From the NCBI GenBank assembly GCA_035221665.1, contig CM069162.1:22940001-23004000 (forward strand): a stretch of DNA of 64,000 nt. Direction: 5' to 3'. Positions 4,836 to 63,262 of this stretch are shown piece by piece. The notes beneath the pieces are model-generated. The model did no database searches. It saw nothing but the letters and a program-made list of their open reading frames with translations, and was not told the DNA's origin. The translations under genes and the position numbers were made by a program. Within the stretch, counting starts at the first letter, position 1, and the number at the start of each line of letters is the position of its first letter. The DNA comes from Okamejei kenojei (Eukaryota).

Positions 4836-5342
4836 TGTAAAGTAGTTACAGTAATCCGTTTTTTTTTTAATTGGACGCCAGGTGTTGACAAAAGAAATAG
4901 AAACGCTGCTATTTTGTTTTCTTTTGCTTGAGTAATTGGCAGGTTCTGCCAAAACTGCGCACAAAATTCACACCTGTTTTACCGGTGGCAATTGAAGCTG
5001 AGATAGCCTGCTGATCTAATTATCATATGCTGGAATGTGAAAGTAAGAATGAAAAGTTCAGGCCCAAGTCGAAGGCCTACCTCTACTAGCTATTCCCTTT
5101 TAAGCCGTGCAAATGCATGTTTTAAGCCATCAAAGCACTGTTTATCACTTCCAGCCAAACACATCAAGGCAGAGATTGACACAACAGGCTAGAGAAACTC
5201 AGCGGGTCAGGCAGCTTTAAGAAAACTCGCTCCCACATCAAGGCTGATCATTGAAGGCCACAGGGATCTGGTACAGCCGGGGGCAACCATGATCGCACTG
5301 CGTAGGAGGGGCAGGCTTGAGGGGCCAACTCCTTTTTTATTG

Positions 5343-5570
5343 TGTAGCAAGGAACTGCGGATGCTGGTTTAAACCGAAGATAGACGCAAAAGGCTGAAGT
5401 AGCTCAGTGCGACAGACAGCATCTCTGAAGAAAAGGAATAGGTGAAGTTTCGGGTCGAGATCTTTTTTCAGATGTTTGAAGATGGGACTCGAGCCGAAAT
5501 GTCACATTCCTTTTCTCTAGAGATGCTGCCTGACCCGCTGAGTTACTCCAGCATTTTGTATCCATCTTTT
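5343..5570. mobile_element. Penelope-derived short element, inverted (head-to-head) pair
   Basis: aaggaactgcggatgctgg...tttcgggtcgag followed by its reverse complement gaagatgggactcgagccgaaatgtcac...ccagcattttg. Confidence 0.8.
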
Positions 5571-6267: not shown

Positions 6268-6358
6268 AGTCTGAAGGGTCTCGACCTGAAACATCACCTA
6301 TTCCTTCTCCAGAGATGCTGCCTGTCCCATTGAGTTACTGCTGCATTTTGTGTCTATT
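6268..6358 (+). mobile_element. Penelope-derived short element (degenerate hammerhead at 5' end)
   Basis: agtctgaagggtctcgacctgaaacatcacc...agatgctgcctgtccc. Confidence 0.8.
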
Positions 6359-7160: not shown

Positions 7161-7263
7161 CACCCAATCCTTCTCTCCAGAGATGCTGCCTGACCCGCTA
7201 AGTCACTCCAGCTTTTTGTATCTGTCCTCGGTTTAAACCAGCATCTGCAGTTCCTTCTTACAC
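7161..7263 (+). mobile_element. Penelope-derived short element, 3' part only
   Basis: cacccaatccttctctccagagatgctgcc...cagcatctgcagttccttc. Confidence 0.8.
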
Positions 7264-8530: not shown

Positions 8531-8592
8531 TTTGTCATTGCCATACACAATCAAATAAGCTGCGACTGTTAACAGTGAGGAGGTACAGTGAG

Positions 8593-8908
8593 GGTGGCAC
8601 GGTGACACAGCGGTAGAGATGTTTGAGCCTTACAGTGCCAACATCTTGGGTTCAATTCTGACTACGCGTGCTGTCTGTATTGAGTTTGTATGTTCTCCCT
8701 GTGACTGCGTGGTTTTTCTCCGGGTGCCCCGGTTTCCACCCACACTCCAAAGACGTATAGATTTGTAGGTCAATTGGCTTCAGTGAGAATTGTAAATTGT
8801 CCCTAGTGTGTCGGATAGTACAAGTGTACGGGTATTGCTGGTTGGCATCGACTCGGTGAGCCAAAGGGCCTGTTTCCGCAGTATCTATAACCTAAACTAA
8901 ACTAAATT
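8593..8908 (+). mobile_element. HE1-type V-SINE
   Basis: ggtggcacggtgacacagcggtagag head to (taaac)n tail. Confidence 0.9.
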
Positions 8909-9029
8909 AATTGCTCACTTACAGTCAGTAGTAAGCACCAATGGTGCTACCACCCTCAGTGAAGGACAACAGTGTCACCACATCCCATGGGATGCAGCGG
9001 TGAATCAATGCACAACCCGAGCCAAGGGC

Positions 9030-9520: not shown

Positions 9521-9569
9521 CAGGGTTGGCATGGGCAAGTTGGGCCAAAGGGCCTGTTTCCATGTTGCA

Positions 9570-9650
9570 AAGACACAAAAAGCTGGAGTAACTCAGTGGG
9601 ACAGGCAGCATCTCTGGAGAGAAGGGAAGGGTGATGTTTTGTGTCGAGGC
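9570..9650 (-). mobile_element. Penelope-derived short element
   Basis: agacacaaaaagctggagtaactcagtgggacaggcagcatctctggagag. Confidence 0.8.
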
Positions 9651-10707
9651 TGCATGACTACGACTCTAAGATGCACGGTGGAAAAGCAGACAAGGCTTTG
9701 TTTGGGGAGAAAAACGGTGAATACAGGAGATGGTCGACTGATCCTGGTGGCCTCCAGCATTCAGAGTGAACGGGGAGAGGGACAAGAGCTCTGGTGATAT
9801 TCCATACACCACCTCTCCTGTGAAATGTCATGCAACCCCACTTTACAGCGCCTGCCCGCTCTGTATTAAAAAGAAAGGCGAAACCATATCGCACACATTG
9901 TTTCCTTGTTCCTTGGCTGAACGTTGCGATTCGGCTCAGCTTGGCGCTGGTTTGAGCTGGCAACATGCAGCTGGGAAGGGGTTAAAACAGCTGGCATTCC
10001 CATTACCTCAGCGGCTGCATCCGCTCCATACAGTACGCGACATTCTTATTCCAGCATTGCGTCAGAGGAGAAGCATTCATCCCGAACAGCAGGGATTTAA
10101 CATTTAAGCCCACAGCAACCAAATTACATCCGTCAAATCCAGCTGGTCTGTGTTCAGGCCTTACACCTGCTTTACTCTATTATTTGCATCACGAAGAGAC
10201 AGGCCATCCATTTGGAGACAGGCAACCTTTAAGGCTCATGGTGAGCTGAGAAATTAACTCAATTTTCTTTGCATCCAAATAGTCCCTTTTATTTTTGCCG
10301 GTGACTCTTGCGATAAAGAACACAGTTGTGCAAGGTGGGCCCCAGATTCCTTGGCCTTTGCTTCTTGTTTGGCAGTGACAAGGCTTTGTTGGCCCAGAAC
10401 TGGAAGAACCAGCCTGAGTTCCTGCTCTTGTAACGCCGGCTGGAGGCCCAGACTGGGTTCAGCTGCATTGATTCTCCTCTCCCATTTTCAATAACTCAAG
10501 CATGGCCTACCCTAACAAGCTGCAGTCTGGTTTACTGCAGAGGGGGATGTATCGCATCGCTGAATTCTATCCTTGTGAGAGGCCGTATCTTCAGAGAAAC
10601 TGACAGGGGAATTAGACATTTAAAAAATGTTGTCTGACGTGCAAACTGGAGACTATTCCCCGGGGAATGGCTTAAAAGTGACGGCAGGCATCCAAAGGTG
10701 CTAATGT

Positions 10708-10862
10708 GTTGGAAGGAACTGCCGATGCTGGTTTACACTGAAGATAGACACAAAATGCTGGAGTAACGCAGCTGGATAGGTCTCAACCCGAAAAGTCACC
10801 CATTCCTTCTCTCCAGAGATGCTGCATGTCCCGCTGAGTTACTCCAGCATTTTGTGTCCATC
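10708..10862. mobile_element. Penelope-derived inverted pair with 17-bp TSD
   Basis: Flanked by tccaaaggtgctaa(t/c)gt at 10691-10707 and 10863-10879. Confidence 0.85.
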
Positions 10863-11796
10863 TCCAAAGGTGCTAACGTTATCAGTGTATCTAATCTCAC
10901 TGCGGTGGCATTGGAGACAAGTATTTGACTGGAACCAAGGGCAGAAAGAAACTTGGGACCTAATGGATCCATTCGACAGCTGGACAATAGTGGCTGCAGT
11001 AGGGCTTTGAGGCTTGTCTGGGTGTATCCTGGAAGTGTCATTGTTTGAGCTCCTGGCTGGAGTCACTCTGCCTCCATTACCCCTGTGGTGCACTGCCCTA
11101 CCACACCAATTGAACAATAAACCAATGCTTCAGATCAAGGACAGATGGACCAGATTGAGTAATTCTCGATAATCATTCAAACAGGTTCTTTTCCCATCAT
11201 CAATGTAATGCATCACAATCAATTCTTACTTCCATTCTGGACAGTAATATTAAATTCCTGGACAAAGCTGGAAGGTGGCAACTTTAGGTTGATCTCCTGA
11301 TTCCCCAACTCCAGTGCATGACATGATTCAGAGGGTCAGGAAGAGTCCTAGTTTGATCAGAGAGGCATGCAAACTGTTTATCCGAGGCTGCATCAGGTGT
11401 ATGTCCAGGCTTTGGATGATCAGAACTTTAGGTTGGACTCTTTGCTCCTGGCCTCTCATCCAGTGACCTCCAATGACAGGTACAGAGTTGTTGTCAACAT
11501 AGTTAATGAGTTTAGTTTATTGTCACGTTACCGAGGTACAGTGAAAAGCTTTTGTTGCGAGCTAACCAGTCAGCGGAGAGACAACACATAATTACAACCG
11601 AGCCATCTACAGTATACAGGTACATGATAGAGGGAATAACGTGAATAACTTTAGTGCAACATAAACCAGTAAAGTCTGATTGAAGATAATCCGAGGGTCA
11701 CCAATGAGGTAGATAGTGGTTCAGGACTGCTCGCTCGATGTGGTACGATGGTTCAGTTGCCTGATAACAGCTGGGAAGAAACTATCCCTGAACCTG

Positions 11797-11890
11797 AAGT
11801 CTGAAGAAGGGTCTCGACCCGAAACGTCACCTATTTCCTTCGCTCCATAGATGCTGCCTCACCCGCTAAGTTTCTCCAGGATTTTTGTCA
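11797..11890 (+). mobile_element. Penelope-derived short element nested in the Rex1-type LINE, 11-bp TSD
   Basis: ccctgaacctg duplicated at 11786-11796 and 11891-11901. Confidence 0.85.
11798..11831 (+). ncRNA. Minimal type I hammerhead ribozyme motif (intact core)
   Basis: agt-CTGAAGA-A-GGGT(CTCG)ACCC-GAAA-CG-TC-acc; predicted cleavage after 11828; helix I only about 2 bp, helix III palindromic ACGT. Confidence 0.7.
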
Positions 11891-11964
11891 CCCTGAACCT
11901 GGAGATGTGCGTTTTCACTTTATATACCTTTTGCCCGATGGGAGAGAGGAGCAGAGGGAGTTGC

Positions 11965-12100
11965 CAGGTCCGCGAAGGGTCCTGGCCTGAAATGTTGCCT
12001 GTCTATTCCCTCCGCAGATGCTGCCTGACCTACTGAGTTTCTCCAGTACTTTGTGGTTTGCTCAGGATTCCAGCATTTTGCAATTTCTTGTATCTCCACC
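11965..12100 (+). mobile_element. Divergent Penelope-derived element (second subfamily)
   Basis: caggt-ccgcgaagggtcctggcctgaaatgtt-gcctg, then agatgctgcctgacc...ccagcattttgcaatttc. Confidence 0.7.
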
Positions 12101-14632: not shown

Positions 14633-14922
14633 TTCTCGCAGTAGTGAGGTGGCCAGTACTGTATGCATTACTCCAGGTGTAGGCTCACTGGTGTTTTATA
14701 AAGACCAGCATAAACTCTCTATATTTGTATCCGAAGTCTTGGCAAATAAATCCAAATGTCACGTAAACCTCAATCACTTAATCCATTTGTCCCATTGCCT
14801 TCATGGATCTGGTGTGCATACGTGCACTCGATCTATCGGGGGTGAGTCTGGATGATATCCCTTTTCCGTCTCCCACCTCTGCACTCTTTTTTATCAAATT
14901 ACTCCAGGAACTTCCACTATCA

Positions 14923-19571: not shown

Positions 19572-19766
19572 AGACAAATAGACTCAAACGCTGGAGTAAC
19601 TCGGTGGGTTAGGTAGCATCTCTGGAGAATGTTTGAAGAAAGATTCCGACCCTAAAAAAGTCACCTTTATGTTTTCCCTGGAGATGCTGCCTGACCCGCT
19701 GAGTTACTCCAGTATTTTTGTGTCTATCTTTGGGATGAACCAGCATTTGTAGTTCCTTCCTACACG
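19572..19766. mobile_element. Penelope-derived inverted pair with 14-bp TSD
   Basis: atgaaga(a/c)actgat at 19558-19571 and 19767-19780. Confidence 0.85.
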
Positions 19767-21800: not shown

Positions 21801-22089
21801 AGAAAGCATCTCTCAAGCCCTCAACATCCACCACTGCACGGGCAGTAGATGAATGGCACCCCCACCATGTTCAAGCAGCCCCTTCATGCCACGTAGTGAT
21901 ATGCAATAGTCGCACCTTATCCAACACAACTGTGCGAGTGTTTACACTACACATGCTCAATGGTTCATGAAGGAGGCTTAACACCATCCGCTGAGAGTGA
22001 ATGAGAATAAATTTCAGCTTTGCCAAAGATATATCTATATCGTGAGAGTGACATTTCTAAAAACTGAATCCACATATTTTTTGGCTGAG

Positions 22090-22180
22090 GATAGACACAA
22101 AACGTTGGTGTAACTCAGCGAGTTAGGCAGCATCTGTGCAGAAAAGGAATGGGTGATGTTTCGGGTCGAGACCCTTCTTC
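22090..22180 (-). mobile_element. Penelope-derived short element
   Basis: Ends gggtgatgtttcgggtcgagacccttcttca (reverse of the hammerhead motif). Confidence 0.85.
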
Positions 22181-23494
22181 ATCTCTACGCTGTGTCAGAC
22201 TTCGGTAGCTCATCACTTTTACAATTGCACTACCATTCACCCTTGGAGACCTGGCCAGTTACACATGTACTACGAGAAGGTTTAACTCCCTGATATTCTC
22301 TTCCCTACTGTGGCGAAGAGCTTGCTGTGCACTTCTGACACCTCCCAGCGAAATGCCTGAGCACAATGAGGAGTCCATTGATAAGCTTTGCATTTGTATA
22401 TCAATGTGCTGAGCCACTGTGCTAGTTCATCACCTCCCCTTCCATAAGGGTGCATCCTAATGATAGACTGCACAACACTGAATGCTTAGGAAAGGTACGA
22501 GAGTTCAGCTTTCCTTGCCCAACATTAATCTGTACGGATTGCTTTGTGGGCTGGGTGGAGAGATGGGTGTGGCATGAATATAGACAATACAAAGCCATTT
22601 CTTTGAAAACAATATTTTAAAAAAAACGTGTAAATGACGACTGGTGGATTTAATTTGTCCCACTAATTGTTGACCGATGCTTTTACTGTTGCAAGCAACA
22701 CACTGGGGCACATTGAGAAACACTGGACCTTAAATCCTCCGTAGAAGAAAATACATAAACAGCACTATTGGATTTTATAGAGTACCGATTATTTACTCAA
22801 TCACCATGAGCAGTGAAATTCATCAGGTCTGTTTATATACTAGTAATAAAATCGCTAGAATTTAGTGTTCGCTTTATACTACCTCAGGGTTTCTTGGGCC
22901 CCATTTGTTTGCATTTAGTACAGTTGTGTCCCAGAGCTGTGCTAGTTGTTTCTGCTGTGAAACAAGGCGGTGTCACAGAGTCACCTGCTGCGGCCCGTCT
23001 GCCAGGCAAGGATTGCTACACAAGGTGCTAAGTGCACTGTTGCCACAACATGCTTCCCAGCTCCAAGCAACTGCAACAAATCCACTGCAGAATACATTTG
23101 CCGCTCCGCTGTGTGGGGTGGGAAATCAGAGCAGCCAGCATGTTCCCCAACCGGTTTGGAGGCTGCACACGGAAATCTGTGAAGCATTTAGCTTATTTAA
23201 CGTTTGCTGCTGTTGTATTGCCATAAGTTTGCTATTTTCCTCCCCCTCTTTTTGTTGCAGCTCCCAGAATCAAGCTCTGCAGTCATTAACCAGGTCCATT
23301 CATGAGGACAAGACATATGAGTGTAATACTACAGAGTTCATGTCTATATGGAGTGCCGCATTAAATACCGGCCACTGTTGGAATTAATATGCCTGTGCGT
23401 TTGCGTGTGCTTGTGCGTGTGCATATACATGTGTGTTTCAATGCATGTCCACATTGATAAATGCAGTGCGTTGGTGTCCATTTAGATGGATACA

Positions 23495-24739: not shown

Positions 24740-24955
24740 CCTCACCTGTATCCATCTAGCACTTGCTAGGCTTTGTCCTGCCCCCACTTCTTTTCCAGCT
24801 TACTTCTCTCCCCACCACAAACAGTCCGAAGAAGGGTCCCGACTGAAAACGTCACGTATCCATGTTCTCCAGAGATGCTACCTGTCCCGCTGAGTTACTC
24901 AAGCATTTTTTTGTCTTATTCTGTTAACCAACATCTGCAGTTCCTTGTGTCTCCA
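24740..24955 (+). mobile_element. Penelope-derived element with upstream pLTR sequence
   Basis: cagtccgaagaagggtcccgactgaaaacgtcac...catctgcagttcctt. Confidence 0.8.
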
Positions 24956-27540: not shown

Positions 27541-27785
27541 CCCCAGTTGCCAGGGGCCTAGGATTCCTGCCCTAAATGTCTCAGACTTGCTCCTCTAGCC
27601 CTATCTCTTTGACCAAGCTTCTGGGACCTCAGCCCAATGTCCCTAACGAGACTTCATGTCAAATTGTGTTTTGTGTACTTCTTGTGAAGCACATAAGGAG
27701 AATTTTGTTACATTACGGATGCTTTAAAAATAGAAGCTGCGTCATTCAGAAATACACAGATGATCAGGAGTCTGATCATCTATGT

Positions 27786-27900
27786 GACCCGAAACGTCAC
27801 CCATTCCTTCTCTCCAGAGATATTGCCTGACCCGCTGAGTTACTCCAGCTTTTTGTGTCCATCTTAGGTTTAAACCAGTATCTGCAGTTCCTTCCTACAT
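27786..27900 (+). mobile_element. Penelope-derived short element
   Basis: gacccgaaacgtcacccattcc...tctgcagttccttcctaca. Confidence 0.85.
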
Positions 27901-27919
27901 ATTTCTTGCACTACATATA

Positions 27920-29097: not shown

Positions 29098-29569
29098 AAG
29101 TCAAATGGATTGCTTCATTGCCTCACTCCAAAGACTCCTTGTATCGAGCTTTGAGAATCGTTTTGTTTTGAAGCTTTTACCTTCTCCAGTTCATCCAGGA
29201 TCATGAAAGGACGATAACAGTGCGAGGGAGGGGCAAGTTCAATGCTCCGAAATGCCGCGTAACCTCTCTCTGCTCTCTGGATGACCGGAACGGGAGAGGA
29301 GTCTTCCTCTTCTACGGAACAGAAAGAGAGAGTTAGATTTAGCTCTTAGGGCTGAAGAAATCAAGGGATATGGGGAAAAAACAGGAACGGGGTACTGATT
29401 TTAGATGGTCAGCCATGATAATATTGAACGCTAACCTAACAGCTAACTTAAAGCGGCATTCCAACATGAAAAGGTTCCCCACCCCTGTACTAGAACATAC
29501 AGCATGACCAAAATCTAGGCTAGTGAAGCAGGATTTAAAGACTGACTTAAAGGTGGACATAAAGGTAGA

Positions 29570-29660
29570 AACAAAGAACTGCAGATGCTGGTTTACAAAA
29601 AAAAGACACAAAGTGCCAGAGTTACCCAGCGGTCAGGCAGCGTCTCTGGAGAATATGGAT
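29570..29660 (-). mobile_element. Penelope-derived short element
   Basis: aagaactgcagatgctggttt...ggtcaggcagcgtctctggagaa. Confidence 0.8.
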
Positions 29661-29884
29661 CGGATACCGATACAAAATATTCCCCAGCTACTTTGTTGGA
29701 AAAACCTGTCTAACTTTTGATGTTTTTCCTACTAACGACTACTTACAATTCTTGAAATAAGTCCTCTGCAGTTATCTGTGCTCCATGCAGTAGGACCTTG
29801 GCAGACAGGACAAGCTGGGCATTCAACCTGCAGACGTATCACCAAACTCCACCCATTATCATGCATCTATCATCATGGGTCGCA

Positions 29885-30279: not shown

Positions 30280-31400
30280 CAGAGAGTCATAGTCATAGAG
30301 CACGGAAACAGGCCCTCCGGCTCAACATGTCCAAGCTGACCAAGATGCCCAATCTACACTACCCCCACCTGCCAGCGTTTGGCCCATATCCTCCAAAACC
30401 TTTCCTATCCATGTACCTGTCCAGATGTCTTTTAAATGCTGATATAGTACCTGCTTCAACTACCTCCTCTAATAGCTCAATCCATATACCCTCCACCGTC
30501 CTTGATTTCCCTACTCTGTAGGGTAAAAGACTGTGCCTTCACTCTATCTATTCCCCTCATGATCTCATACACCTCTATATGATCACCCCTCATCTTCCTG
30601 CGCTCCAAGGAAAAAAGTACTAGCCTGCCTAACCTCTCCCAATAGAGGTTGGGCAGGCTAGAACTTTTTTCCTTGGAGCGCAGGAAGATCCAACCCGACC
30701 TCCCGGTGGCTCAGCACTTCAACTCCCCCTCCCATTCCGTATCTGACCTCTCTGTCCTGGGCCTCCTCAACGGCCAGAGTGAGCAATGCCGCAAATTGGA
30801 GGAACAGCACCTCATATTCCGCTTGGGTAGTCTGCATCCTCTTGGCATGAACATTGAATTCTCTCAATTCTGTTAACCCTTGCTGTCTCCTCCCCTTCCT
30901 ACCTCTCCCTCAGCCCTCGGGCTCCTCCTCCTCCTTTTTCCTTTTTTCCCCCTGCCTCCCCCCACCCCCCATCAGTCTGAAGAAGGGTTTCGGCCCGAAA
31001 CATTGCCTATCTCTTTCGCTCCATAGATGCTGCTGCACCCGCTGAGTTTCTCCAGCATTTTGTGTACCCTCGATTTTCCAGCATCTGCAGTTCCTTCTTT
31101 AACACTCTCCATATAGCTCCTGCCCACAAGTCCTGGCAGCATCCTCGTAAACCTTCTCTGAACACTTTCCAGCTTATCAACATTCTTCCTAGACCAAGGT
31201 GACCAAGACATGAACACAATACTCCAAATGCAGCCTCACCGACGTCTCGTACAACTGCAACATAACATCCCAACGTCTATACTCAATACCCTGACTGATA
31301 AAGGCCAAAGTACCATAAGCCTTCTTGACCACTCTAGCCTGCTGTGACACCAGTTTCAAGGAACTATGTACCTAAACTCCTGGATCCCTCTGCTTCACTC
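30280..31400 (-). mobile_element. CR1 fragment split by a Penelope insertion
   Basis: DKLESVQRRFTRMLPGL on the right side; CR1 3' tail on the left side. Confidence 0.85.
30690..31104 (+). mobile_element. Penelope-like element 3' end: GIY-YIG endonuclease C-terminus, 3' UTR and hammerhead motif
   Basis: QPDLPVAQHFNSPSHSVSDLSVLGL...RKLEEQHLIFRLGSLHPLGMN is the typical vertebrate PLE endonuclease end; about 100 nt after the stop is agtCTGAAGAAGGGTTTCGGCCCGAAACATT (30974-31004). Confidence 0.9.
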
Positions 31401-35177: not shown

Positions 35178-35771
35178 ACCTAAGGAACACGGTTTAAAGT
35201 TGCATTCAAAGGCACTAAAGCTGGTTGCTGCTGGCATCATTGGAAGTGTCAGTATATATTAGATGGGATTGAGTCCACAGCCGGGGACAAAAGGACCAGT
35301 GAGCCAAGATTTTATAATTCAGGTAACTCAATGCAGACTGCGGAATCAAGTGGGGACCATGTTGAATCCACAACTCATTTCTGAACTGCCTTCAATAAAT
35401 GTCATCAGAAGAGACACAGGTCTCCCTGGTAAGATTATCGTGTTACTACTGAACAGAGTTGGAATCACAGAATAAATTGCTACCATCAACAATGATTCAA
35501 TGATAGTTTATTGTCACATGTACCTAGATACAGTGATATTCTTTGTATTTGTATAGTATCTACATGCGCCAACAAAGTTACAAAAGGTTCATCAAACAGT
35601 CTATGTTCTCAGTGGCCACCTACTGGGTCCCCCCTTTGTTTTTGGGGCCCCCCGCCAGGTACCCTCTTCGTCTCGGAGCCTTCTGCCGCTGTGTGGTAGA
35701 ATCATCCTACCACAACCAGAGAGCAGTGCTAAACTACTATCTACCCCATTGGTAACCCTCAGACTATTCTT

Positions 35772-35980
35772 TAAGAAAGAACTGCAGATGCTAGAAAAAT
35801 CGAAGGTAGACAAAAATGCTGGAGGAACTCAGCGGGTGAGGCAGCATCTATGGAGAGAAGGAATCGGCAGCGTTTCGGGTCGAGACCCTTCTTCAGACAG
35901 GTCTCGACCCGAAATGTCGCCTATTCCTTCTCTCCAAAGATGCTGCCTCATCCGCAGAGTTCCTCAAGCATTTCTGTCTA
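35772..35980. mobile_element. Penelope-derived inverted pair with 15-bp TSD
   Basis: cctc(a/g)gactat(t/c)ctt at 35757-35771 and 35981-35995. Confidence 0.85.
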
Positions 35981-36007
35981 CCTCGGACTATCCTTGATCG
36001 GACTTTT

Positions 36008-36295: not shown

Positions 36296-37139
36296 TTGGC
36301 TGGCTTTACATTGCACTAAACTTTATTTCCTTATCATGTATCTGTACACTGTCAATGGCTCAATTGTAATCATGTATTGCCTTTCTGCTGACTGGACAGC
36401 ACACAACAAAAGCTTTTCATTGTGCCACAGTGGACATGACAATAAACTAAACTGTAAACATCCCCGGAGCCTTCTGCGTTCTTTAATGTCCACTCAGTGC
36501 ATGGAGTGTGCGATTACTTTTTAAAATCTTCTTAACGTTTGGAGTCTGGCCTCAGAATCCATCATCTATGCGTGGTGTAACCATGTAATTCAGAGGGTCC
36601 TGTGGGCTTGCAGGGAGGAAGCTAATCTCAATAGGAGCTCACAGGGGAAGTGAACCTAATATGGAACAACATCGTATGGAGTAGATGATCCTGGATTTAA
36701 TTTCTGGCCTTTGCTGATTTCCTAATCTCAAAGGGAGCAGCAGTAGGGTTAATTGAGGCAGGAGAGAAGGGACTATCAGTTCCTGACTGCAATGGAATAA
36801 CCAGCTGGAAAGTGCATTAAAAAAACGCATGCGTTAGCAGAATAGCTCACTCAGATTGTCCAAACTGTATAATGGGAGAGGTACCAAACGACTGCTGCTC
36901 CCAATGGAACTGTGTCCAATAATAGTGAGTGGTCTGTGGAAGGTTTATTAAACTGGTGATATATAGGACCAAGGTGTTGTGCACAATAGAACAGACCGCA
37001 GAAAGTGGTGCTGACGGACATCAGACTGTTTTGTCATCAGACTCCGGTCGGTCGATGAGGGGCCCCAAAAGAGACCTCAGTGAGGGATTGGGGGTGGAGG
37101 ATCAAGTGGTGAGCAGAAAACGGAAGAGGGACCTACATG

Positions 37140-37840
37140 TTCGGGAAGGAACTGCAGCAGCTGGCTTATACCGAAGATAGACAAAAATTGCTGGAGTAAC
37201 TCAGTGGGTCAGGCAGGTTCCCTGGAGAAATGGAATGGGTGATGTTTCATTCTGGCCTGTCTCCCTAAGGTGACCTACATGTAGTGGGATCCACACACCA
37301 TTCATGGTAGCCTTGGACTGATTAGTGTTGCTGGGGCGTGCCTCACATTTGTTGTGAAGGCCTCTCACTCCGCAAGTGGCCTGCACCATCCTTGGCCCAC
37401 AGATTCACACATGTAGAGGGATCCATGCATCATACACAAGAAGAAGGGTCCCGACCCGGAACGTCACGCATTCCTTCTCTCCACAGACGCTGCCTGTCCT
37501 GCTGAGTTACTCCAGCATCTGCAGTTCCTTCCTACACAGCCTTCACTTCAGTTCAGTTTAGTTTATTGTCACGTGTACCGAGGCACAGCGAAAGGCTTTT
37601 GTCTTGGACTGCACAGTAATGCAGGGGCAGGATTGATAGTTGTCCTGAAGGTCTCTTTCCCCAGGAGTTTATCCACACCATCCTTGCCCAAGATTCAGCA
37701 ATGTATAAGTAGCTCTAACTCGAGACTGAAGAAGGTATAGACCCGAAGCGTCATATTCTCCAGAGATGCTGCCTGGCCCGCTGAGTTACTCCAGCACTCT
37801 GTGTATTTTTGGTAAACCAGCACCTGCAGTTCCTCATGCC
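37140..37840. mobile_element. Three Penelope-derived short elements (37140-37250 minus; 37438-37537 plus; 37723-37840 plus)
   Basis: Each matches the shared about 130-bp consensus. Confidence 0.8.
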
Positions 37841-38818
37841 TCCCATGAAGCTTCTACAGTGAACCTGCGCCCAGAACGCTAGACACTGACCTACGGACAA
37901 CTGAAATCTACAAATATTCAGCTACTCTTGATGATGTCTGTAAAATGAGACGATGTATAACTTAGAACAACCCTGATCAATCACAGCTATAAATGTGATG
38001 GGCAATTGGACTGGAATCAATGCACCAGTATTTAACTCTGCTGCCCTCTCCAGATATGATTAGTGCAACCAAGTGAAGCACCCAATGTTTATCACCGTAA
38101 CCTGTTTGCAAGACATTGAACAGAGGGAAAGAGAAACATTTTGTTGTCCTCCTCTCTATTGTGCTGGTGACAATCTGTATTTGGCTGACAGAAATTCTGC
38201 TCTGACCCGGGGTTAATGACATGCACAGCGCATCGCACTGATCAAGTGAATAATGCAGATTTCTTCCCCCTTTGTAGTATAAAGTTAAAGCCTAGGTCAC
38301 AGAGTGAAGCTGCAGCGAGCAACTCCCCATGTGTCTCTTTTAATTAACACACTCGTAACTAAAGCTGCCGCCCAAGGTCAGACAACCGCCTCCCCTCAGA
38401 CAGGCAAGAGGACACGACTCACAACAGCGGCGATGAGGACAAGAGAACTGACCTCTCCAGGAGCAAAATGTCAATTAATTATACTTTTACTACCCTCTCA
38501 ATTATTACAAGCTGATAAGCTGAATAGGGTATCTGAAAATGGCATTAAATCATCAGCAAGTCGCTGGCTGGTGAGTACAGTGTGACAATTACCATAAAAT
38601 TCACAGATGTGGTGCCTAATAATAGGACATAAATAGTTAGAGGTTGTTTATGGCCTAATCCATACTCCTGTCATATTTCCCATCTCTTTAACTGGACAGT
38701 TTTGTCACAATAAGGGATTTTAAGGTGAGGGCTGGAAAATCAAAGTAATCCAGTGGTTGAAGGTGAATAGGACGTTTACTGAGTCTCACCCCTGCAGCAT
38801 GCAGATACCAACTCATGG

Positions 38819-39240
38819 GGTAGACACAAAATGCCGGAGTAACTCAGCGGGTCAGGCAGCATCTCTGGAGAGGAGGAATGGGTGACGTTTCCAGGCGAGA
38901 CCCTTCTTCAGACTGAGAGTCAGGGAAAGGGTAACGAGAGATATAGACGGTGATGGAGAGAGATGTGGAACAAATCAATGAAAAATATGCAAGAAAAGTA
39001 ACAATGATCAAGGAAACAAGCCATTGTTAGCTGTTTGCTCGGTGAGAATGGGAAGCTGGTGTGACGTAGGTGGGGGAGGGATGGAGAGAGAGGGAATGCT
39101 GGGGTTACTTGCATCCCTGCATTGAACCGAAACATCACCCATTCCTTCTCTCCAGAGATGCTGCCTGTCCCGCTGAGTTACTCCGGCATGTGCGTCTATC
39201 TTCAGTTTAAAACAGCACCTGCAGTTCCTTCCTGCACATA
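38819..39240. mobile_element. Penelope-derived inverted pair with a long antisense arm
   Basis: Minus arm 38819-39112 extends about 200 bp beyond the hammerhead; plus arm 39124-39240. Confidence 0.8.
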
Positions 39241-40979: not shown

Positions 40980-42239
40980 AGTGTGTGTGTACAATAATAT
41001 ATTAAACTTAATATACTGAACCTTTTTTCCATTTACTATAATGTTTACAGCGAACTATGTTTACATATTCTGTTGTGCTGCTGCAAGTAAGAATTTCATT
41101 GGTCCATTTGGGATATATGACAATAAAACACTCTTGACTCTTGACTTTACGGTAGGCTGCTACATCATTGTAGATGTGAATGGAGCATTTGTCCTTTCTT
41201 CCACTATGTCGATGTTATACTCATTTAATTGAAGTTTCTCTCGGTACTCCTCGTGAATGCCTCTCTGCAAGCTCGGCCCCTTCACTATAAACTCAGCAAG
41301 CTGCCGGCGGATCCCAGTGTTCCAAATTCCAAGCCCCAATCCCTCCCCTCCATGGATTGCAGGCCACAGATGGGAGCTTGACATGCAAGGGGGAGATTAG
41401 GTCCCCCGTGGAATGTTTGATGAAACAGGACTGAATAATAAAAGAGAAGGCAGGTGAACCAGATAATGGAGGTCATTAAAACAAGGCTAGAGGATGTGGG
41501 TTCCCAGAAGAATAGGAAGGTAGGGCACCATTAACCGCCCCATTGCACCTTACCTACGACTCAGTTTTAGAGTTCAGAGCTGGATTTAACATGTCTATAT
41601 ATTACCCTCTAGCAAATCTCTTATCTGCAAACTCACAAGCTCAATTAAGCAATGTGGACCAGGAAATCTGTTGGTCTAACTCCCTAAGGATGCATACAGC
41701 CAACAATATAAATAGGAAAGAATTATTATACCACTCTGTCATACTTTCAGGATCTCCTGAATCAATTTACTGGATAGTCCTTTGAACCCTTGTTCAAATA
41801 ACATTTAGTATTACTCTGCAATTGGCACTGAGCAAGATCTCATCAACAGCAAAGAGATGAATGAACAGTTTATGATGGTAGACACAAAATGGTGGAGTAA
41901 GCCGGCGGGCCAGGCAGCGTCTCTGGAGAGAAGCATTTATCATGGTGTCGGCTACGGAAAGGAAGCAGGCCAGACCTGGATGCTCCCTGCTCTTCACTAA
42001 TCACTTTCACAAGGGCTTCTCCATGTCTAGACCGATGGACTGCACTTTGCACACCTCATGCCTCAGAGTCTACGACATTTTGTTACCAGAGTTCTCTTCT
42101 CCATTCACATAAATATGTCTCATTTGTACAAATGATGCAGCACCCACTCAAGCCTGAAGTCCTGCAATGGGACTTGAACTCACAAACTCCTCACACAGGG
42201 ATGCTGACACACTCACACTTTGTGTCAAACTGATGTTTT

Positions 42240-42530
42240 ATGTATAGCTAGAAACAGAAGATGCTGGCTTATACTGCGGAGAGACATAAAGTGCTGGAGC
42301 AACTCAGTGGATCAGGCAGCATCTCTGGAGAAAATGAACAGGTGGCGTTTCGGGTCAAAACCCTTCTTCAGGCTGAAAGTAGTGGGGGGGAGGGGGAGAG
42401 GGGGGGAGGGGGAGAGGGGGGGAGACTGGAGGTAGGAAAAGGCCAGAACAAATCAGGGTTGGCAACAGATGACCAAGGGAGTGTGGAGCCCATAATGGGC
42501 GATTGTTGGCTGGGTAAGAGGTGAACATTG
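42240..42530 (-). mobile_element. Penelope-derived element with upstream pLTR sequence
   Basis: ggcgtttcgggtcaaaacccttcttcag followed by a purine-rich arm complementary to the 24740-24830 type. Confidence 0.8.
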
Positions 42531-43109
42531 ATGGATTCAGGGATGCGAACAAACTGATGTTCCATGAACCTACTATATAATCCAAACATGGAGAATGACA
42601 GTTTGCAAAGTCTGGACTAAACACAGTGGGTTAGTTCCACTGAGACTAAGTTAGAATTTCTCTTTCACCTCACCCAGGCTGGGACAGATTCGAACACTCT
42701 CTGGTAACCCAATCAACAGTGCGAGGGAAGTACGTTCCCATGTCAAACAATTACCGTCTCAATGAGGACACGCTGTAATTCCATGAGGGAATCGTGCTAT
42801 TGCTATGCCATCATGATAATGAAATTAGTTACTGTAAGGCCCAATTATAACTGCATCTGAGATCTTGCCCACTGCACGCTACAAGGACACAAGTGAAGAA
42901 GCATGGTGGAACACACATCCAGCATCTGTTCATGGACCACAGGGACATAAGCTTTTCCCTTTTTATCCAAATCAAATTAACTGGAGAATGATATTTCTGT
43001 TCCCTATAAATACTATTTTTTTTCCATTAGAAGCACATCCTTTGCCTAAGGTCCAGAATACAAATTGTCAGTCTGCCTCTCAGCTAAAGGCAATGACTAA
43101 TACATCTTA

Positions 43110-43200
43110 AGACACAAAGTGCTGGAATAACTCAGCGGGTCAGGCAGCATCTCTGGAGAACATGGATGGATGAAGTTACGGGTCGGGATACTTCTTCTTT
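43110..43200 (-). mobile_element. Penelope-derived short element
   Basis: agacacaaagtgctggaataactcagcgggtcaggcagcatctctggag. Confidence 0.8.
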
Positions 43201-45005: not shown

Positions 45006-45191
45006 CAACACGGCCTATATGTACTGCATTCAATTCCCTCATCCAAATCAGTGATATAGATTGTGAACAGCTGGGACCCTGCAGCACTTACTAATCACAC
45101 CCTTCCAATCTGAAGCTGACCTGCTTATTTACGCGCTGCCTTTAATTTGCACACGCATAGGACTCCACAGTCAGGTACTTTCATTTTGTTC

Positions 45192-45406
45192 GTAGACAAA
45201 AGCGCTGGAGAAACTCAGCGGGTGCAGCAGCATCTATGGAGTGAAGGAAATAGGCAACGTTTCAGGCCGAAATCCGGAAATAGGCAGCGTTTCGGCCCGA
45301 AACGTGGCCTATTTCCTTCGCTCCATCGATGCTGCTGCACCCGCTGAGTTTCTCCAGCACTTTTGTCTACCTTAAATCTTCCAGCATCTGCAGTTCCTTC
45401 TTATAC
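45192..45406. mobile_element. Penelope-derived inverted pair with a perfect 15-bp TSD
   Basis: actttcattttgttc at 45177-45191 and 45407-45421. Confidence 0.9.
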
Positions 45407-45884
45407 ACTTTCATTTTGTTCAATGACTTCTCGTGCAGCACCTCACACAAGGCCATCTGAAAAGTTACACAAGAACCGGTTTCCTCTTTTTGTTCTGCTA
45501 GTTACAACCACAGAAACCTCTAACATTTGTCAAACATGATTTCCCTTTCAAGAACGTATGTTCTCTCGGCCCAATCCTATTATTATTTTCCAAGTGCTCT
45601 TTCATCACTGGTTTAATAATAGATTCCAACCTTTTCCCTCCTCTACGGGTCTATTGTGCTTTGTTTTTCTCTCTTTCTCCTTTCTTAAGTGGCGAGGTTA
45701 CATTTTCTTCCTTCTATTCTGTGGGAACTGCTTTGGAAGCGATGGAATTTGGGTAGGTGTCAAAAATACATCCATAACCTCCACTGCCACTCTCAGGGAC
45801 ATTGGGCCCATGGACCGAAAACGTCTGCATTGTGTTACTTTACCCACCGAGCAGAGATGAGGCCTTTAAATGTCTTTCAAAATG

Positions 45885-46002
45885 GGGACACAAGAGACTG
45901 CAGGAGTATTGAGCGACTTGCTGAAGGAACTCAGTGGGTTAGGCAGCATTTGGGGAGGGAGTGAACAGGCGATGTTTTGAGTCATGACCCTTCTTCAGAC
46001 CC
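45885..46002 (-). mobile_element. Divergent Penelope-derived element
   Basis: Reverse: gggt-CTGAAGAAGGGTCATGACTCAAAACATC-gcct. Confidence 0.7.
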
Positions 46003-46417
46003 CTCTTTCAAATGGCACAGCCTGTGGAACCAAGTAAAGAGAGCGATAAGTTGCCAGACTTGCTGAGACTAGTTGTCGGGTAGGCTAGTCCAGGAAACTG
46101 GATTTTCAGGCTTTTTGGCTTTGATGAGTGAAACTGTTAAGTCTACGCAGGGTGCAGCTAGCTATATTATTTTTATATTTCAAAACAGGCAGCATAAAAC
46201 TGAACTTTAGACGACGACCTCAGGAACCTGTGGCATTTACAAGAATGTCACAGTAGCTTTAGAGTTTGGAACCTCACAGTGGAGCGGTCACAGTGAGCCC
46301 AGTATTGACATCCCTTTCCTCAAGATCTTTGTGCATTTCTGCCATTTTCTATCATGACCTGAGACTGGATACAGCACTGCTTAGTGTCCTTACAAACCAG
46401 CTTGATTATATATTTGT

Positions 46418-47140
46418 ATGAACGAACTGCGGATGCTGGTTTAAACCAAAGATAGACACAAAATGCCTCTACTTCCTGAGAAGATTACGGAGAGTCGGTC
46501 TGTAAAGGAGGACTCTCTCTAACTTCTACAGGTGCACAGTAGAGAGCTTGCTGACTGGTTGCATCGTGGCTTGGTTCGGCAACTTGAGTGCCCTGGAGAG
46601 GAAAAGACTACAAAAAGTAGTAAACACTGCCCAGTCCATCATCGGCTCTGACCTTCCTTCCATCGAGGGGATCTACCACAGTCGCTGCCTCAAAAAGGCT
46701 GGCAGCATCATCAAGGACCCACACCATCCTGGCCACACACTCATCTCCCTGCTACCTTCAGGTAGAAGGTACAGGAGCCTGAGAACTGCAACGACCCGGT
46801 TCAGGAATAGCTACTTCCCCACAGCCATCAGGCTATTAAACCTGGCTCGGACAAAACTCTGAACATTAATACCCCTCCATCTATTATTTGCACTTTGTTA
46901 ATTTATTAATTCATGTGTGTATTTAAGTATATAACTGTAGTCAATGCCTACTATGTTCTGTTGTGCTATGCAAAGAAAGAATTTCATTGTCCTGTCAGGG
47001 ATATATGACAATAAACTCTTTTGACTTTTGACCTTGACTTTTGACTTTGACTTTGAAATGCTGGAGTAACTCAGCGGGACAGGCAGCATCTCAGGAGAGA
47101 AGGAATGGGTGACATTTTGGGACGAGACCCTTCGTCAGAC
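46418..47140 (-). mobile_element. Penelope-derived element split by a Rex1 insertion
   Basis: Left half ends aaatgc (46461-46466); right half restarts aaatgc (47056-47061). Confidence 0.85.
46467..47055 (+). mobile_element. Rex1/Babar-type LINE 3' part
   Basis: LTGCIVAWFGN...RLQKVVNTAQSII...PSGRRYRSL.TATTRFRNSYFPTAIRLLN; (ttgact)n tail. Confidence 0.9.
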
Positions 47141-54937: not shown

Positions 54938-55843
54938 CTAAAGTAGTGCAATGAATTCTAACCTTGCCAGTGGTGCTCATGGCTCGAGAATAAATGTTAC
55001 AAAATCTCCTCCACTCTGGTGCATCTTTAACTGCATTAAAAAAATCTCCAGAAACCTTTCTTTTCAACACACACTACACTCCAGCATTATGTGCCTGTGT
55101 GGAAAAGACTCTGTGGCATTGTGCTATATTTTGCCGGAGTTACTTTGTGTTGTTGATTAATGGTCCGTCAGGACTTTGCCCCGCTGTATCTGTTCAGCCG
55201 CAATAATGACACGGACTGTGTCTTGCAGCAAATGGCCTCAACGTGTTGTTGTGTACAATGTACACGCATTTATCCGAGCGTGCTCCATGTGTATGTGTGC
55301 GTATCGTACATTTGCTTTTGAAAAATGTTGCTTTTTGCCACCTGCAAGGGAAGACTGCCGACACGGCAAGCTTTCCTACCTCTAATCCCGCAGTCCTGGT
55401 GGGAGCAGCAGGAAATGATTAGTCAGTCATTTTGCTGCAAGCTCCTTTTCTCCTGTGGCCCAACTGTGCCAGGTCAGAGAAGGCAGACGAGAACATTGCG
55501 TGAGACTGTCTGGAAAACTGCCACATGGCGTTATGGAAAATGACAGGCTAACAGATGGCAGTCTCTCTCTCTCTCTGGGGAATTTATTACACTGCGCTCA
55601 GGGTGACTGACTGTGTGATGGAGCCTGTGTTTCATAATTCATTTTCTCTTTTTTTTTTAAAGGCGCACACTCCTTTACCTCAGTAGGAAATTGTAAATTC
55701 TGGACTGCTTCACTGAGGGAATAACAGAAACCCAGAGTTTTTGTTTATTTGACTGCTTCTGCATTGGAAATGTTGCTTGAACATAATCTCCTTCCGCTTC
55801 TGCAGTCAAGTGTTCTGCCTGATAATCTCTGTAAAGAGGAGAG

Positions 55844-56033
55844 AAACAAAATGCTGGAGTAACTCAGCGGGACAGGCAGCATCTCCGGAGAGAAGAAACG
55901 GGTGACGCTAAGGGTCTCAACCCGAAACGTCACCCATTCCTTCTCTTCAGAGATGCTGCCTGTCCTGCTGAGTTATTCCAGCATGTTGTGTCTATCTTCG
56001 ATTTAAACCAGCATCTGCAGTTCCTTCCTACAC
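55844..56033. mobile_element. Penelope-derived inverted pair
   Basis: Arms meet at gggtgacgct/aagggtctcaacccgaaacgtcaccc. Confidence 0.85.
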
Positions 56034-56221
56034 GTGTCTGTAGAGAACGTCCCTTTGAATTGGGAAGCCGGCTATCATCGTGCCAGTATTCCCTCCATTT
56101 CCCCCTTCTCCCCGCTTCCTATAAGCCTTGGTACCTTGCTGAGGCATTCTGCCTTGGGCCCATATCCTTCTGGCAAAGGATCCATGTAGCTATTCAGAAT
56201 AAACATTCATTCTGCTGCCAG

Positions 56222-56630: not shown

Positions 56631-56795
56631 TCTTAACTGTGTGCATAACAAGGGCTTCTGGCCCTTGCACTTGCGACAGACTCAGTGGGCTGAAATGCCA
56701 CCCTCGGTGCTACTATAACTGGGATTCATATCAATTTATATACAGACAGGAGGTGGAACCGGCCAAATGTTACTGACCTGGTCCAGTTAAACTAA

Positions 56796-56968
56796 AGATA
56801 GACATAAAGTGCTGGAGTAACCAGCATCTCCAGAGATAAAGAATGGGTGGCGTTTCAGGTCGGGATCCTTCTGAGTCTGAAGAAGGGTCCCGACCCGAAA
56901 CGTCACCCATCCTTTTTTTCCAGAGATGCTGCCTGACCCACTGACTCCAGCACTTTGTGTCTATCTTT
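56796..56968. mobile_element. Penelope-derived inverted pair
   Basis: aaagatagaca(t)aaagtgctggagt ... actccagcactttgtgtctatcttt. Confidence 0.9.
56874..56908 (+). ncRNA. Minimal type I hammerhead ribozyme motif (intact core)
   Basis: agt-CTGAAGA-A-GGGT(CCCG)ACCC-GAAA-CG-TC-accc; predicted cleavage after 56904. Confidence 0.7.
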
Positions 56969-57029
56969 GGTGTCTCTCTTTGGTTTCTACATTTCAGTAA
57001 AACTAAGTTCATTTCAGTACCACTAACTG

Positions 57030-57200
57030 TCTCCTCCCACTTACTTTCTTTGTCCCACCCCCTCCCGACATCAGTCTGAAGAAGGGTCTCGACCCAAAAC
57101 GTCGCCAATTCCTTCTCTCCATACATGCTGCCTAACCCGCTGAGTTTATCCAGCATTTTGTGATTACCTTCGATTTTACTAGCATCTGCAGTTCTTTCTC
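57030..57200 (+). mobile_element. Penelope-derived element
   Basis: tcagtctgaagaagggtctcgacccaaaacgtcgcc (G-to-A change in GAAA). Confidence 0.85.
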
Positions 57201-57586
57201 AAGCTTTAGAGGTACCACGTGTTAAAACAAAATGTAAAAACTGACACCTCATCTTATGTTCAGTTGGACAGTGAAGGTCCCATGACACAGCAAAGTCAAG
57301 TGAAATGTCCCAACTCACATTCCTGTTTCAAAAGAATTCCCTAAAGTTAATGATCCAGTTATTTGCCTCACTGCTTTGAGGAATCTTACTGGTTATATTT
57401 TGTTTCCTGTAAAAGAACAGTGTCCGCACTTCAAAACTATTTGGAGTCACAGGAGACTGCAGGTGCTGGAATCTGGAGCAAATAACAAACTGCTGGAAGT
57501 TTTTGTTCCACTTTCCGGCACCTGCAGTCACTTATATCTCCATTCTGCTCTCCCACAGCAAAGTCTCCTCCAGGCATTCCCACTTT

Positions 57587-57755
57587 GAAGACAGACAAAA
57601 AAAGCTGGAGTAACTCAGCGGGACAGGCAGCATCTCTGGGGAGAAGGAATGGGTGGTGCTTCGGGTTGAGACCCCTCTTGCTGCCTGTCCCGCTGTGTTG
57701 CTCCTACTTTTTGTGTCCACCTTCAGATTAAACCAGCATCTGCAGTTCCTTCCTG
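57587..57755. mobile_element. Penelope-derived inverted pair, centre deleted
   Basis: Arms match the consensus. Confidence 0.8.
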
Positions 57756-57775
57756 CTCTGTGAATCTCTCTCGTC

Positions 57776-59040: not shown

Positions 59041-59268
59041 AGGAGACACAAGAAACTGCAGATGTTGATACTGGAATCTTGTGCAAAACACCAAATGCTG
59101 GAGGAACTGAGTGGGTCATCTGTGGAGGGAACAAACATAATGCTTCCGGACAGAACCCTTTTTCTGATTCTTAAGACTCCAATCCGAAGAAGGGTCCCAA
59201 ACCAAAATGCCGTCCGTCCATTCCCTCCTCGGATGCTGCCTGGCCCGCCGAGTCCCTCCAGCACAGGG
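59041..59268. mobile_element. Divergent Penelope-derived inverted pair
   Basis: aagaaactgcagatgttg ... ccgaagaagggtcccaaaccaaaatgcc ... ctccagca. Confidence 0.7.
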
Positions 59269-59357
59269 TGTAAATGCAAGGCTGGGATGGGACATCACTG
59301 GGCCACTGCTAGCGGCAAGATCTGCAGAATTTGCCTTTTCCCCCCCAACACAAACAG

Positions 59358-59438: not shown

Positions 59439-59934
59439 GTAAGTCAGCAAAGCTGGTATACTGTGTGCAGTGTGCAGAACTGCCAGATGCATTTTCAAGG
59501 GCAGAGCAGCACACGGGCCCAAGCTTTTGTAAACGATGCTCGGAGTTGATACTTCCCGGCACTAGCCCATGGTTGCCGCATTCTATTTCCCTTTGTGTCT
59601 CACACCCACGAGGCAAATGGAACACATTTGCTGCAGATAACCCGTGGACAGGGTCAATGACAATGGGAACTTCGGAGAAATTTGAGTGAAATCTGCTGGG
59701 ACCTTCATTCAGTGTGTGTGCAATTCCGTGGGAAATATCTTTGCACAGAATCAGTGCAGTGCACCCTTCCCCCAGCCTCTGCAAATGAATTTAACAGTCA
59801 CTGGCAGACTGTAAATCTGAATGCTGCCACCACCATTCTTAAAAACCACTGAGCCCAAGGCCTTCTCATATAAATCTGGGAATGGAATTTCTTAAAGCAA
59901 GGTTGGTCTGCAGAGTGAACTGTCATTTATATTC

Positions 59935-60002
59935 AAAGGTATACAAAAATGCTGGAGAAACTCAGCGGGTGAGGCAGCATCTATGGAGCGAAGGAAATAG
60001 GC
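59935..60002 (-). mobile_element. Penelope-derived fragment
   Basis: aaaatgctggagaaactcagcgggtgaggcagcatctatggagcgaagg. Confidence 0.8.
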
Positions 60003-60092
60003 ATGGGTTCAGGAGAAATTAATGCAGCATCGTCCCAGACCACTCACCAAGGTCAGTCTTGAGATCACAATCTTTTGACGCATTGGTGAGTA

Positions 60093-63129: not shown

Positions 63130-63262
63130 CCTTACCCTTCTATTTCTCTATACTCCTTTTCCCCTGACTCTCAGTTAGATTAAGGGTTTCAACCCAAAAT
63201 ATCACCCATTTCTTCTCTCCAGAGATGCTGCCTGTCCCACTGAGTTACTCCAGCATTTTGTA
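63130..63262 (+). mobile_element. Penelope-derived element
   Basis: aagggtttcaacccaaaatatcaccc...agagatgctgcctgtccc. Confidence 0.75.

Follow-up and report, generated by a model that had tools for sequence, protein, structure and literature searches.

The short repeats that crowd this 64,000-nucleotide stretch of the Okamejei kenojei genome (the window hereafter) are probably dead-on-arrival, 5′-truncated pLTR insertions that derive from several subfamilies of EN+ Penelope-like elements (PLEs) of the Neptune/Nematis type; many of the short ones may be run-off products. The 5′ part of the repeat is a minimal type I hammerhead motif, which is intact in the family consensus and in two of the 43 copies (at 11801 and 56877). 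The class is already known, since scattered minimal hammerheads were described in 2014 as Penelope pLTR remnants, and the present case is a very dense family of it. The copy examined first is one of the two with an intact core, and its parts are as follows.

11797..11890, plus strand: the copy under study, a solo tail-less pLTR fragment of subfamily B; its true 5′ end lies at 11797-11800 and overlaps the TSD
11801..11828, plus strand: intact core, with C3 at 11801, helix II at 11809-11812/11817-11820, GAAA at 11821-11824, the predicted cut after C17 (11828) and a helix I of 2 bp
11786..11799, plus strand: left TSD of this copy, 14 bp with 1 mismatch
11891..11904, plus strand: right TSD of this copy

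A profile HMM built from copies in the window gave 46 matches that cover 4,508 bp (7.0% of the 64 kb), and no match was found in the reversed window used as a control. The 43 matches that pass E<1e-6 were used, and the weak ones at 16651, 57497, and 58190 were dropped. These 43 copies are balanced in orientation (21 plus and 22 minus, without strand bias) and make up 33 insertion units, 10 inverted pairs and 23 solos, in good agreement with the about 30 loci counted in the first-pass annotation. The density is approximately one copy per 1.5 kb. The mean divergence among the copies is 12.5%, and CpG decay is seen as TG/CA in 46 of 138 CpG sites. Several subfamilies are resolved in a tree of the copies, which covers 38 of the 43 over 73 columns with rough support.

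The 3′ ends of the copies are bimodal. They fall at model columns 85-108 in 22 copies and at 127-137 in the other 21, with none between, so that an optional tail of approximately 35 bp is present in 21 of the 43 copies. The consensus length of about 130 bp given earlier is thus right for the tailed form (21/43) but not for the shorter class (22/43). Ten head-to-head pairs are found, nine of them directly adjacent, against a random expectation of 0.36 (maximum 5 in 5000); in the tenth, approximately 200 bp of UTR separates the arms. Exactly one arm is tailed in nine of the ten pairs (p=0.011). The pairs are listed here without a strand, together with the second intact core.

5340..5566: inverted pair, minus arm tailed and plus arm tail-less; 9-bp TSD at 5332-5340/5566-5574
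10704..10862: inverted pair, minus arm tailed; 17-bp TSD at 10691-10707/10863-10879
19575..19766: inverted pair, plus arm tailed; 14-bp TSD at 19558-19571/19767-19780
35768..35986: inverted pair, minus arm tailed; 11-bp TSD
38818..39239: inverted pair, plus arm tailed, minus arm tail-less and reaching approximately 200 bp into the UTR; 12-bp TSD
45191..45408: inverted pair with its tail on the plus arm; the TSD of 15 bp is perfect, and 30 bp are duplicated locally at the junction
55835..56034: inverted pair, plus arm tailed; 10-bp TSD
56787..56973: inverted pair, full tail on neither arm; no TSD found
56877..56904, plus strand: second intact core, located in the right arm of the preceding pair, where a long hairpin is predicted to enclose it completely
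57583..57757: inverted pair, plus arm tailed; no TSD found
59043..59270: inverted pair of the divergent subfamily D, minus arm tailed; no TSD found

Seven of the ten pairs lie inside a direct repeat of 9-17 bp (TSD score ≥7). Since both arms of such a pair share one TSD, each of these pairs represents one insertion event. Among the solos, 4 of the 19 tested have a TSD score ≥8, the copy under study included, and an additional solo TSD was found in one of five long copies. In random pairs of 30-mers, scores of ≥7 and ≥9 occurred in 16/300 and 0/300, respectively, and the controls reach the scores used in 2-5%. A clear TSD is absent in 3 of the 10 pairs and 15 of the 19 solos. The structure described for PLEs, with an inverted 5′-truncated pLTR, a tail of 30-40 bp at one end only and a short TSD (PMC8557442; PMC3846280), is the same. 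The solos are as follows.

5171..5217, minus strand: short solo without core; 8-bp TSD
6269..6358, plus strand: tail-less solo, core with a 3-nt deletion
7162..7262, plus strand: tailed solo that begins, as defined by its TSD, with the base following the predicted cut (or with C17 itself); TSD at 7151-7161/7263-7273
9567..9648, minus strand: tail-less solo, start in helix II
11965..12094, plus strand: tailed solo of subfamily D, 5-bp helix I drawable, core degenerate
22085..22181, minus strand: tail-less solo, start at U4
24822..24953, plus strand: tailed solo with a pyrimidine-rich upstream continuation, core broken
27785..27901, plus strand: tailed solo, start in helix II
29568..29663, minus strand: tailed solo, start near the cleavage site (boundary ambiguous)
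37138..37248, minus strand: tailed solo, start at GAAA
37440..37531, plus strand: tailed solo with an internal deletion
37723..37840, plus strand: tailed solo, cleavage site deleted
41880..41935, minus strand: short solo without core; 11-bp TSD
42238..42549, minus strand: tailed solo with approximately 175 bp of UTR, U16.1 reads C; 12-bp TSD
43109..43197, minus strand: tail-less solo
45915..46002, minus strand: solo of subfamily D, G12 and G16.2 lost
46414..46467, minus strand: fragment, 3′ end plus tail only
47055..47140, minus strand: tail-less solo, G12 reads A
57072..57203, plus strand: tailed solo that continues upstream, G12 reads A
59932..60013, minus strand: tail-less solo of subfamily B, start at the cleavage site or slightly upstream of it (boundary ambiguous)
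63136..63262, plus strand: tail-less solo with approximately 40 bp of UTR in common with the 38911 copy, core broken

Two further points about the insertions should be noted. An A/T site that is diagnostic of subfamilies splits the main subfamily about evenly. The arms of the pairs 5340-5566 and 38818-39239 differ at this site, as if copied from two different RNAs, and the other informative pairs agree there. The copy under study sits inside another repeated sequence (11507-11961), and similar sequence (35699-35767) flanks the pair at 35768; nested insertion or a target preference is possible.

The derivation from Penelope, proposed from the letters alone, is borne out by the tail, the inverted pairs and the TSDs, and by one locus at which an endonuclease remnant and a UTR are joined to the copy at 30977. 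The remnant was located by reading the flanks of the copies.

30682..30876, plus strand: C-terminal remnant of a GIY-YIG endonuclease ORF (Penelope-like), with 62 open codons at 30688-30873 and the stop at 30874-30876
30877..30972, plus strand: pyrimidine-rich 3′ UTR from the ORF stop to the pLTR, last bases CAG, read from the flanks
30973..31105, plus strand: tailed pLTR copy with a near-intact core (30977-31004, G16.2 reads A), the 3′ end of the ORF-linked insertion

The 62-residue remnant, too short for the Pfam scan of frames described below, has no Pfam match when searched alone. In a homology search with it, 9 of 29 candidates matched, the best two being Leucoraja erinacea proteins with 87% and 70% identity. 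Upstream of the part shared with the remnant, the homologues continue as a GIY-YIG domain that contains a cysteine pair; they also have the HH half of CCHH, and several carry the CX2-5CxxC linker. Only the HH half of CCHH is retained in the window, whereas two close homologues (P0003, 70%; P0012, 60%) carry both the linker and CCHH. A profile search returned 7,531 relatives. Pfam matches in 15 of the long ones, mostly below the curated cut-offs, are to GIY-YIG in 14 and also to RVT_1 in 11, and relatives over 600 residues (600-950, with RT) are 38-52% identical to the remnant. Judged on these sequences by the criteria given in PMC8557442, the element is probably a C-terminal-EN Penelope-like element of the Neptune/Nematis type. 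At the 5′ junction of the ORF-bearing fragment, approximately 36 bp of a flanking host repeat is duplicated in inverted orientation (30593-30629/30652-30688), an arrangement like fold-back or second priming on the target DNA.

Recognizable coding sequence is attached to this copy only, and 42 of the 43 copies have no detectable coding sequence. No Penelope RT was found by Pfam in 141 of the 146 stop-free frames of ≥85 residues in the window (the five that span the N gap were left out); the matches in those frames are only to LINE-type RT, endonuclease and ALKBH8_N. A tblastn search with 157 relatives gave no clear Penelope coding fragment in the window besides the 30.7-kb locus, with a weak match at 4874-4999 (E=0.001). 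A full-length element, with direct pLTR-ORF-pLTR order, is absent from the window.

The repeat at its 5′ end runs on into Penelope-like UTR, and UTR sequence lies upstream in six copies, whereas 25 copies start inside the unit. In the tree (38 of the 43 copies, 73 columns), the ORF-linked copy joins 45282 and 45275, both short, in a clade with support of 97/90, and it is 87-89% identical to its five nearest short copies. With this grouping, the short copies sampled here do not stand apart as a lineage of their own. No head-to-tail array of the repeat was found within the 64 kb, nor the two or more consecutive units with complete hammerheads that define a retrozyme. These observations speak against the retrozyme- or SINE-like satellite that had been proposed. 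No tRNA gene was found, and a 5S- or 7SL-type Rfam match is likewise absent; together with the continuity of the 5′ end with PLE UTR, this speaks against a SINE with a tRNA-, 5S- or 7SL-derived head.

The identity of the motif itself stands. In the consensus and in two of the 43 copies, C3-A9, G12-A15.1, U16.1, H17, the insertion after A9 and G10.1-C11.1 are all present, as in a minimal type I hammerhead, and the palindromic positions 15.2-16.2, proposed to form a dimeric helix III, read ACGU in both intact copies. A minimal-hammerhead descriptor, run on the window with its 178 N removed, matches exactly only at 11801-11828 and 56877-56904, the two cores called intact in the first-pass annotation, against 1 match in 300 dinucleotide shuffles. 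These two matches are copies of one consensus and count as one event. The core at 30977-31004, called nearly intact, does keep the core nucleotides, while the change of G16.2 to A breaks the ACGU palindrome. Both intact copies have a helix I of only 2 bp, as had been cautioned, which is short of the 4-5 bp expected of the PLE type. As for the longer variants of helix I, a 5-bp pairing is indeed drawable at 11965-12001, with CCGCGA instead of CUGANGA as the core enclosed by its strands. The core of the 4-bp variant at 45965-46002 is broken, with G12 and G16.2 lost. The longer variants belong to copies with broken cores.

The state of the core across the copies was compared with that of the body. 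The whole core is spanned by 18 of the 43 copies, and the mismatch among them is 18/180 (10.0%) in the core, counted at non-CpG positions, versus 138/936 (14.7%) in the body (p=0.10). The best-kept block of the body has 10.6% mismatch over all copies, like the core. G12, which lies in a CpG, reads A in 8 of the 34 copies that cover the position. The statement that the loop of helix II varies while its stem is kept fails as a sign of covariation: although 84% of the helix II cells are paired, none of its four pairs has changed on both sides, and no measure of helix covariation exceeds shuffles in the 22 of 43 copies used. The check proposed for excess conservation or covariation of the core thus found neither, and selection on the core was rejected, its conservation not being above that of the body; the copies decay neutrally. 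The proposed comparison with Rfam gave no hammerhead among 20 matches at E≤5. All 20 matches in the window are miRNA-like hairpins below the gathering score, some of them on inverted pairs, and Rfam is without a model that matches this hammerhead.

Folding in the local context gives a pairing probability of 0.05-0.19 for helix II and about 0 for helix I. In an artificial tandem dimer of the 11801 copy, the active fold is predicted to cost 17 kcal/mol. In the predicted long hairpin, the inverted arm pairs with the 56877 core along its whole length, and the nine adjacent inverted pairs have predicted folds of −60 to −155 kcal/mol. The expectation that transcripts crossing the region carry many potential self-cleavage sites is therefore not supported, given the two intact cores among 43, the loss of G12 to A, the lack of better conservation in the core, and these predictions. 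As to published activity, single minimal PLE hammerheads are reported not to cleave in vitro and dimers to have only low activity (PMC4209133). The anole PLE ribozyme is described as needing protein and as dispensable for in vitro insertion, with no RNA-seq ends at the site (PMC11167929), and eight of nine predicted Xenopus dimers are reported not to have cleaved (10.64898/2026.07.22.740005). The scattered copies are thus not supported as functional cleavage sites, and nearly all of them are probably decayed leftovers. A role of the ribozyme, if any, would lie in the RNA of the master element, probably with the help of protein or as a dimer. The inverted pairs, if transcribed, would give long double-stranded RNA, which is a likelier effect on host transcripts than self-cleavage.

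The positions of the 5′ ends should be noted, since they bear on how the short copies arose. The truncation rate per base is 0.005 in columns 16-90, 0.046 in columns 6-15 and 0.29 in columns 3-5. Eighteen copies extend as far as C3, and 12 of them end no more than three columns upstream of it (p=4e-5 against the neighboring truncation rate, for an interval chosen after inspection); eight of these 12 ends are hard-bounded by an inverted junction or a TSD. The start columns are accurate to 2-3 nt only, and two pairs contribute both arms. The point at which the ends pile up is a TCAGT motif just before the ribozyme, which we take to resemble the initiator consensus. An Inr-like TCACT is present in a rotifer pLTR (PMC3846280), and Penelope is reported to have an internal, LINE-like promoter (PMC2377424). 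The pile-up suggests run-off copies from the 5′ pLTR; a pile-up at one place would also result from a discrete non-autonomous element. Most templates would have been uncut RNA, because the start of 36 of the 43 copies is C17 or lies upstream of it (start column ≤33).

A mechanism that would give these ends can be proposed along the lines of the anole PLE, for which nicking and extension of both strands and a predicted dimer are described (PMC11167929). An RT-GIY-YIG protein would nick the target DNA, as in the in vitro work on the anole element, and cDNA synthesis would begin within the pLTR RNA, at one or the other of two sites, so that a copy ends with or without the tail (PMC11167929). If both strands were primed, one per site, the two cDNAs could be joined at their truncated ends to form a head-to-head pair with one tail and one TSD; pairs would then be double priming events and solos single ones. 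Many short copies may have been primed in the 5′ pLTR of the element mRNA and run off at a transcription start in the initiator-like TCAGT. Run-off from the 5′ pLTR would give just this length of copy and would account for the great excess of such copies over coding fragments. Where transcription begins, where priming takes place and whether the RNA is cut at all are inferred from DNA here, and the biochemical model is a Poseidon-clade element, not a Neptune one.

Cleavage-site starts give one clean case, the copy at 7162, among the four TSD-defined short solos, and by a rough estimate approximately 10% is expected by chance. This start hints that some templates were cleaved, and as one case among four, within chance, it is taken as a lead only. 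It is possible, though we hold it somewhat doubtful, that the ends can be read as a fossil record in which a protein dimer with two RNAs primes opposite strands from two start sites, most short copies are TCAGT run-offs, and a minority like 7162 record cutting by the hammerhead in vivo.

The pile-up at TCAGT might instead reflect the processing or structure of the RNA, either a 3′ splice acceptor abutting helix I, as in Penelope of Drosophila virilis, or a stall of the RT after helix II and at a C-rich tract. With an acceptor there, splicing might lengthen helix I and thereby activate the ribozyme. In D. virilis, an intron is reported to end on the 5′ side of a helix I of 2 bp (PMC4209133). 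All six copies that extend upstream have a tract of 75-94% pyrimidine ending in CAG one base before C3, though their UTR sequences differ, and truncation is already raised approximately 10-fold in the 10 columns 5′ of helix II. However, the copies that start at columns 3-5 share no upstream exon sequence, several of them keep the G or AG of the CAG, and no strong donor is seen by eye within approximately 200 nt upstream in 30682-30975 or 38911-39110. We consider this explanation unlikely. The other way to obtain a common start is a non-autonomous, SINE-like derivative of the pLTR, with short masters that begin at TCAGT, have an internal promoter and their own transcription, and are mobilized in trans by Penelope protein. 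The common 5′ end just before the core in 12 of the 43 copies and the lack of detectable attached coding sequence in 42 would fit such a derivative, as would the internal promoter of Penelope (PMC2377424) and the rotifer case in which pLTRs alone sufficed for mobilization in trans (PMC3846280). Six copies extending into the UTR, and one into the ORF, would not, nor would the failure to find a tRNA gene, the 97/90 clade of 45282 and 45275 with the ORF-linked copy, or its 87-89% identity to the five nearest short copies. In addition, the template of the anole PLE is reported to need RNA beyond the tail, the first 172 nt of the ORF (PMC11167929), which is absent in the solos. A derivative of this kind is accordingly improbable.

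Very improbable is a family of non-LTR retrozymes, whose units would self-cleave, circularize and re-insert, so that host transcripts would carry numerous active cleavage sites. The motif does exceed chance (1 descriptor match in 300 shuffles), a 2026 preprint ties vertebrate retrozymes to PLE pLTRs, includes dispersed monomers in its counts and has examples from one chondrichthyan (10.64898/2026.07.22.740005), and the TSD-bounded copy at 7162 starts at the cleavage site, with two more (29663 and 60013) doing so ambiguously. Against this, the copies form no head-to-tail array in the window and show no permutation that would place their start at the cleavage site, only 2 of 43 are intact, neither conservation nor covariation of the core is seen, and folding is unfavorable. 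The inactivity of single minimal PLE hammerheads and the low activity of their dimers in vitro (PMC4209133), and the eight uncleaved of nine Xenopus dimers (10.64898/2026.07.22.740005), point the same way. Tandem offshoots may occur elsewhere in the genome. Truncated insertion of the EN+ element, with run-off for many of the short copies, is the reading that we prefer.

Other features of the window are as follows. A long, broken LINE with RT and endonuclease Pfam matches lies on the minus strand at approximately 1300-4500, and many shorter 3′ fragments of similar LINEs are found elsewhere; fragments at 48253-48847 and 54575-54859, also on the minus strand, have RVT_1 and/or ALKBH8_N Pfam matches. 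A second abundant family of approximately 300 bp (5729-6056, 8582-8909, 14922-15232, and others) has up to approximately 17 matching copies. By inspection this family, with a head that looks tRNA-like and a terminus of short TTTAG-type repeats, is probably a SINE. A 37-bp minisatellite occupies 17281-17738 (12.4 copies, 88% matches). At 52588-52794, an inverted repeat of a LINE-like 3′ end forms a long hairpin with a sub-threshold miRNA match in Rfam. A 50-bp near-perfect direct repeat (6753-6802/6939-6988) lies outside the other families, and 40802-40979 is an assembly gap of 178 N.

The element resembles the EN+ PLEs Neptune and Nematis, as described in PMC8557442 and PMC3846280, in its C-terminal GIY-YIG followed by UTR and pLTR, the hammerhead and Inr-like motif of the pLTR, the optional tail of 30-40 bp at one end, the inverted 5′-truncated head-to-head copy, the TSD, and relatives with the CX2-5CxxC linker. 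It differs in that almost only the last 50-135 bp survive here, at the high density given above and often as pLTR-pLTR pairs without an ORF between them. The motif has the features given for metazoan PLE minimal hammerheads by Cervera and De la Pena in 2014 (PMC4209133): CUGANGA, an extra base between 9 and 10.1, G10.1-C11.1, GAAA, palindromic 15.2-16.2, and no helix III. The present helices are shorter than those of the Schistosoma families: 2 bp for helix I, as in the D. virilis variant, against 4-5 bp, and 4 bp for helix II against 7-8 bp (PMC4209133). That paper attributes PLE minimal hammerheads, mostly single motifs with some close opposite-strand pairs, to truncated PLEs, and a search of its text and of one supplementary file found no cartilaginous fish named. 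Two intact motifs in 64 kb would, if typical, be far above the 4,000-9,000 per genome that it gives for coelacanth and Xenopus.

The Poseidon element of Anolis (PAc; PMC11167929) is similar in its two 3′ ends separated by the tail, its hammerhead tens of bases upstream, and its copies from uncut RNA. It belongs to a different clade, and its ORF starts inside the ribozyme region. Non-LTR retrozymes (PMC7229834; 10.64898/2026.07.22.740005) are likewise short and non-coding, with a type I hammerhead, and are related to PLE pLTRs. However, they are described as head-to-tail tandem repeats with canonical hammerheads and circular RNAs (PMC7229834), whereas solos, head-to-head pairs, tails, TSDs, and a minimal, mostly broken motif are found here. 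A Penelope expansion is reported in the whale shark genome (10.1101/443036). Our literature searches on skates and sharks found no description of this skate family or of its ribozyme, and repeat libraries probably hold the family as Penelope.

The patterns in the distribution of ends are the part of most interest. Approximately 7% of the window consists of many independent insertion ends, from which the mechanism of Penelope integration, the transcription start and any cleavage in vivo can be read statistically. If the doubtful fossil-record reading is true, the origin of the tails and inverted structures, and any cutting by PLE hammerheads in the cell, would be testable by mapping ends in the existing genome assembly.
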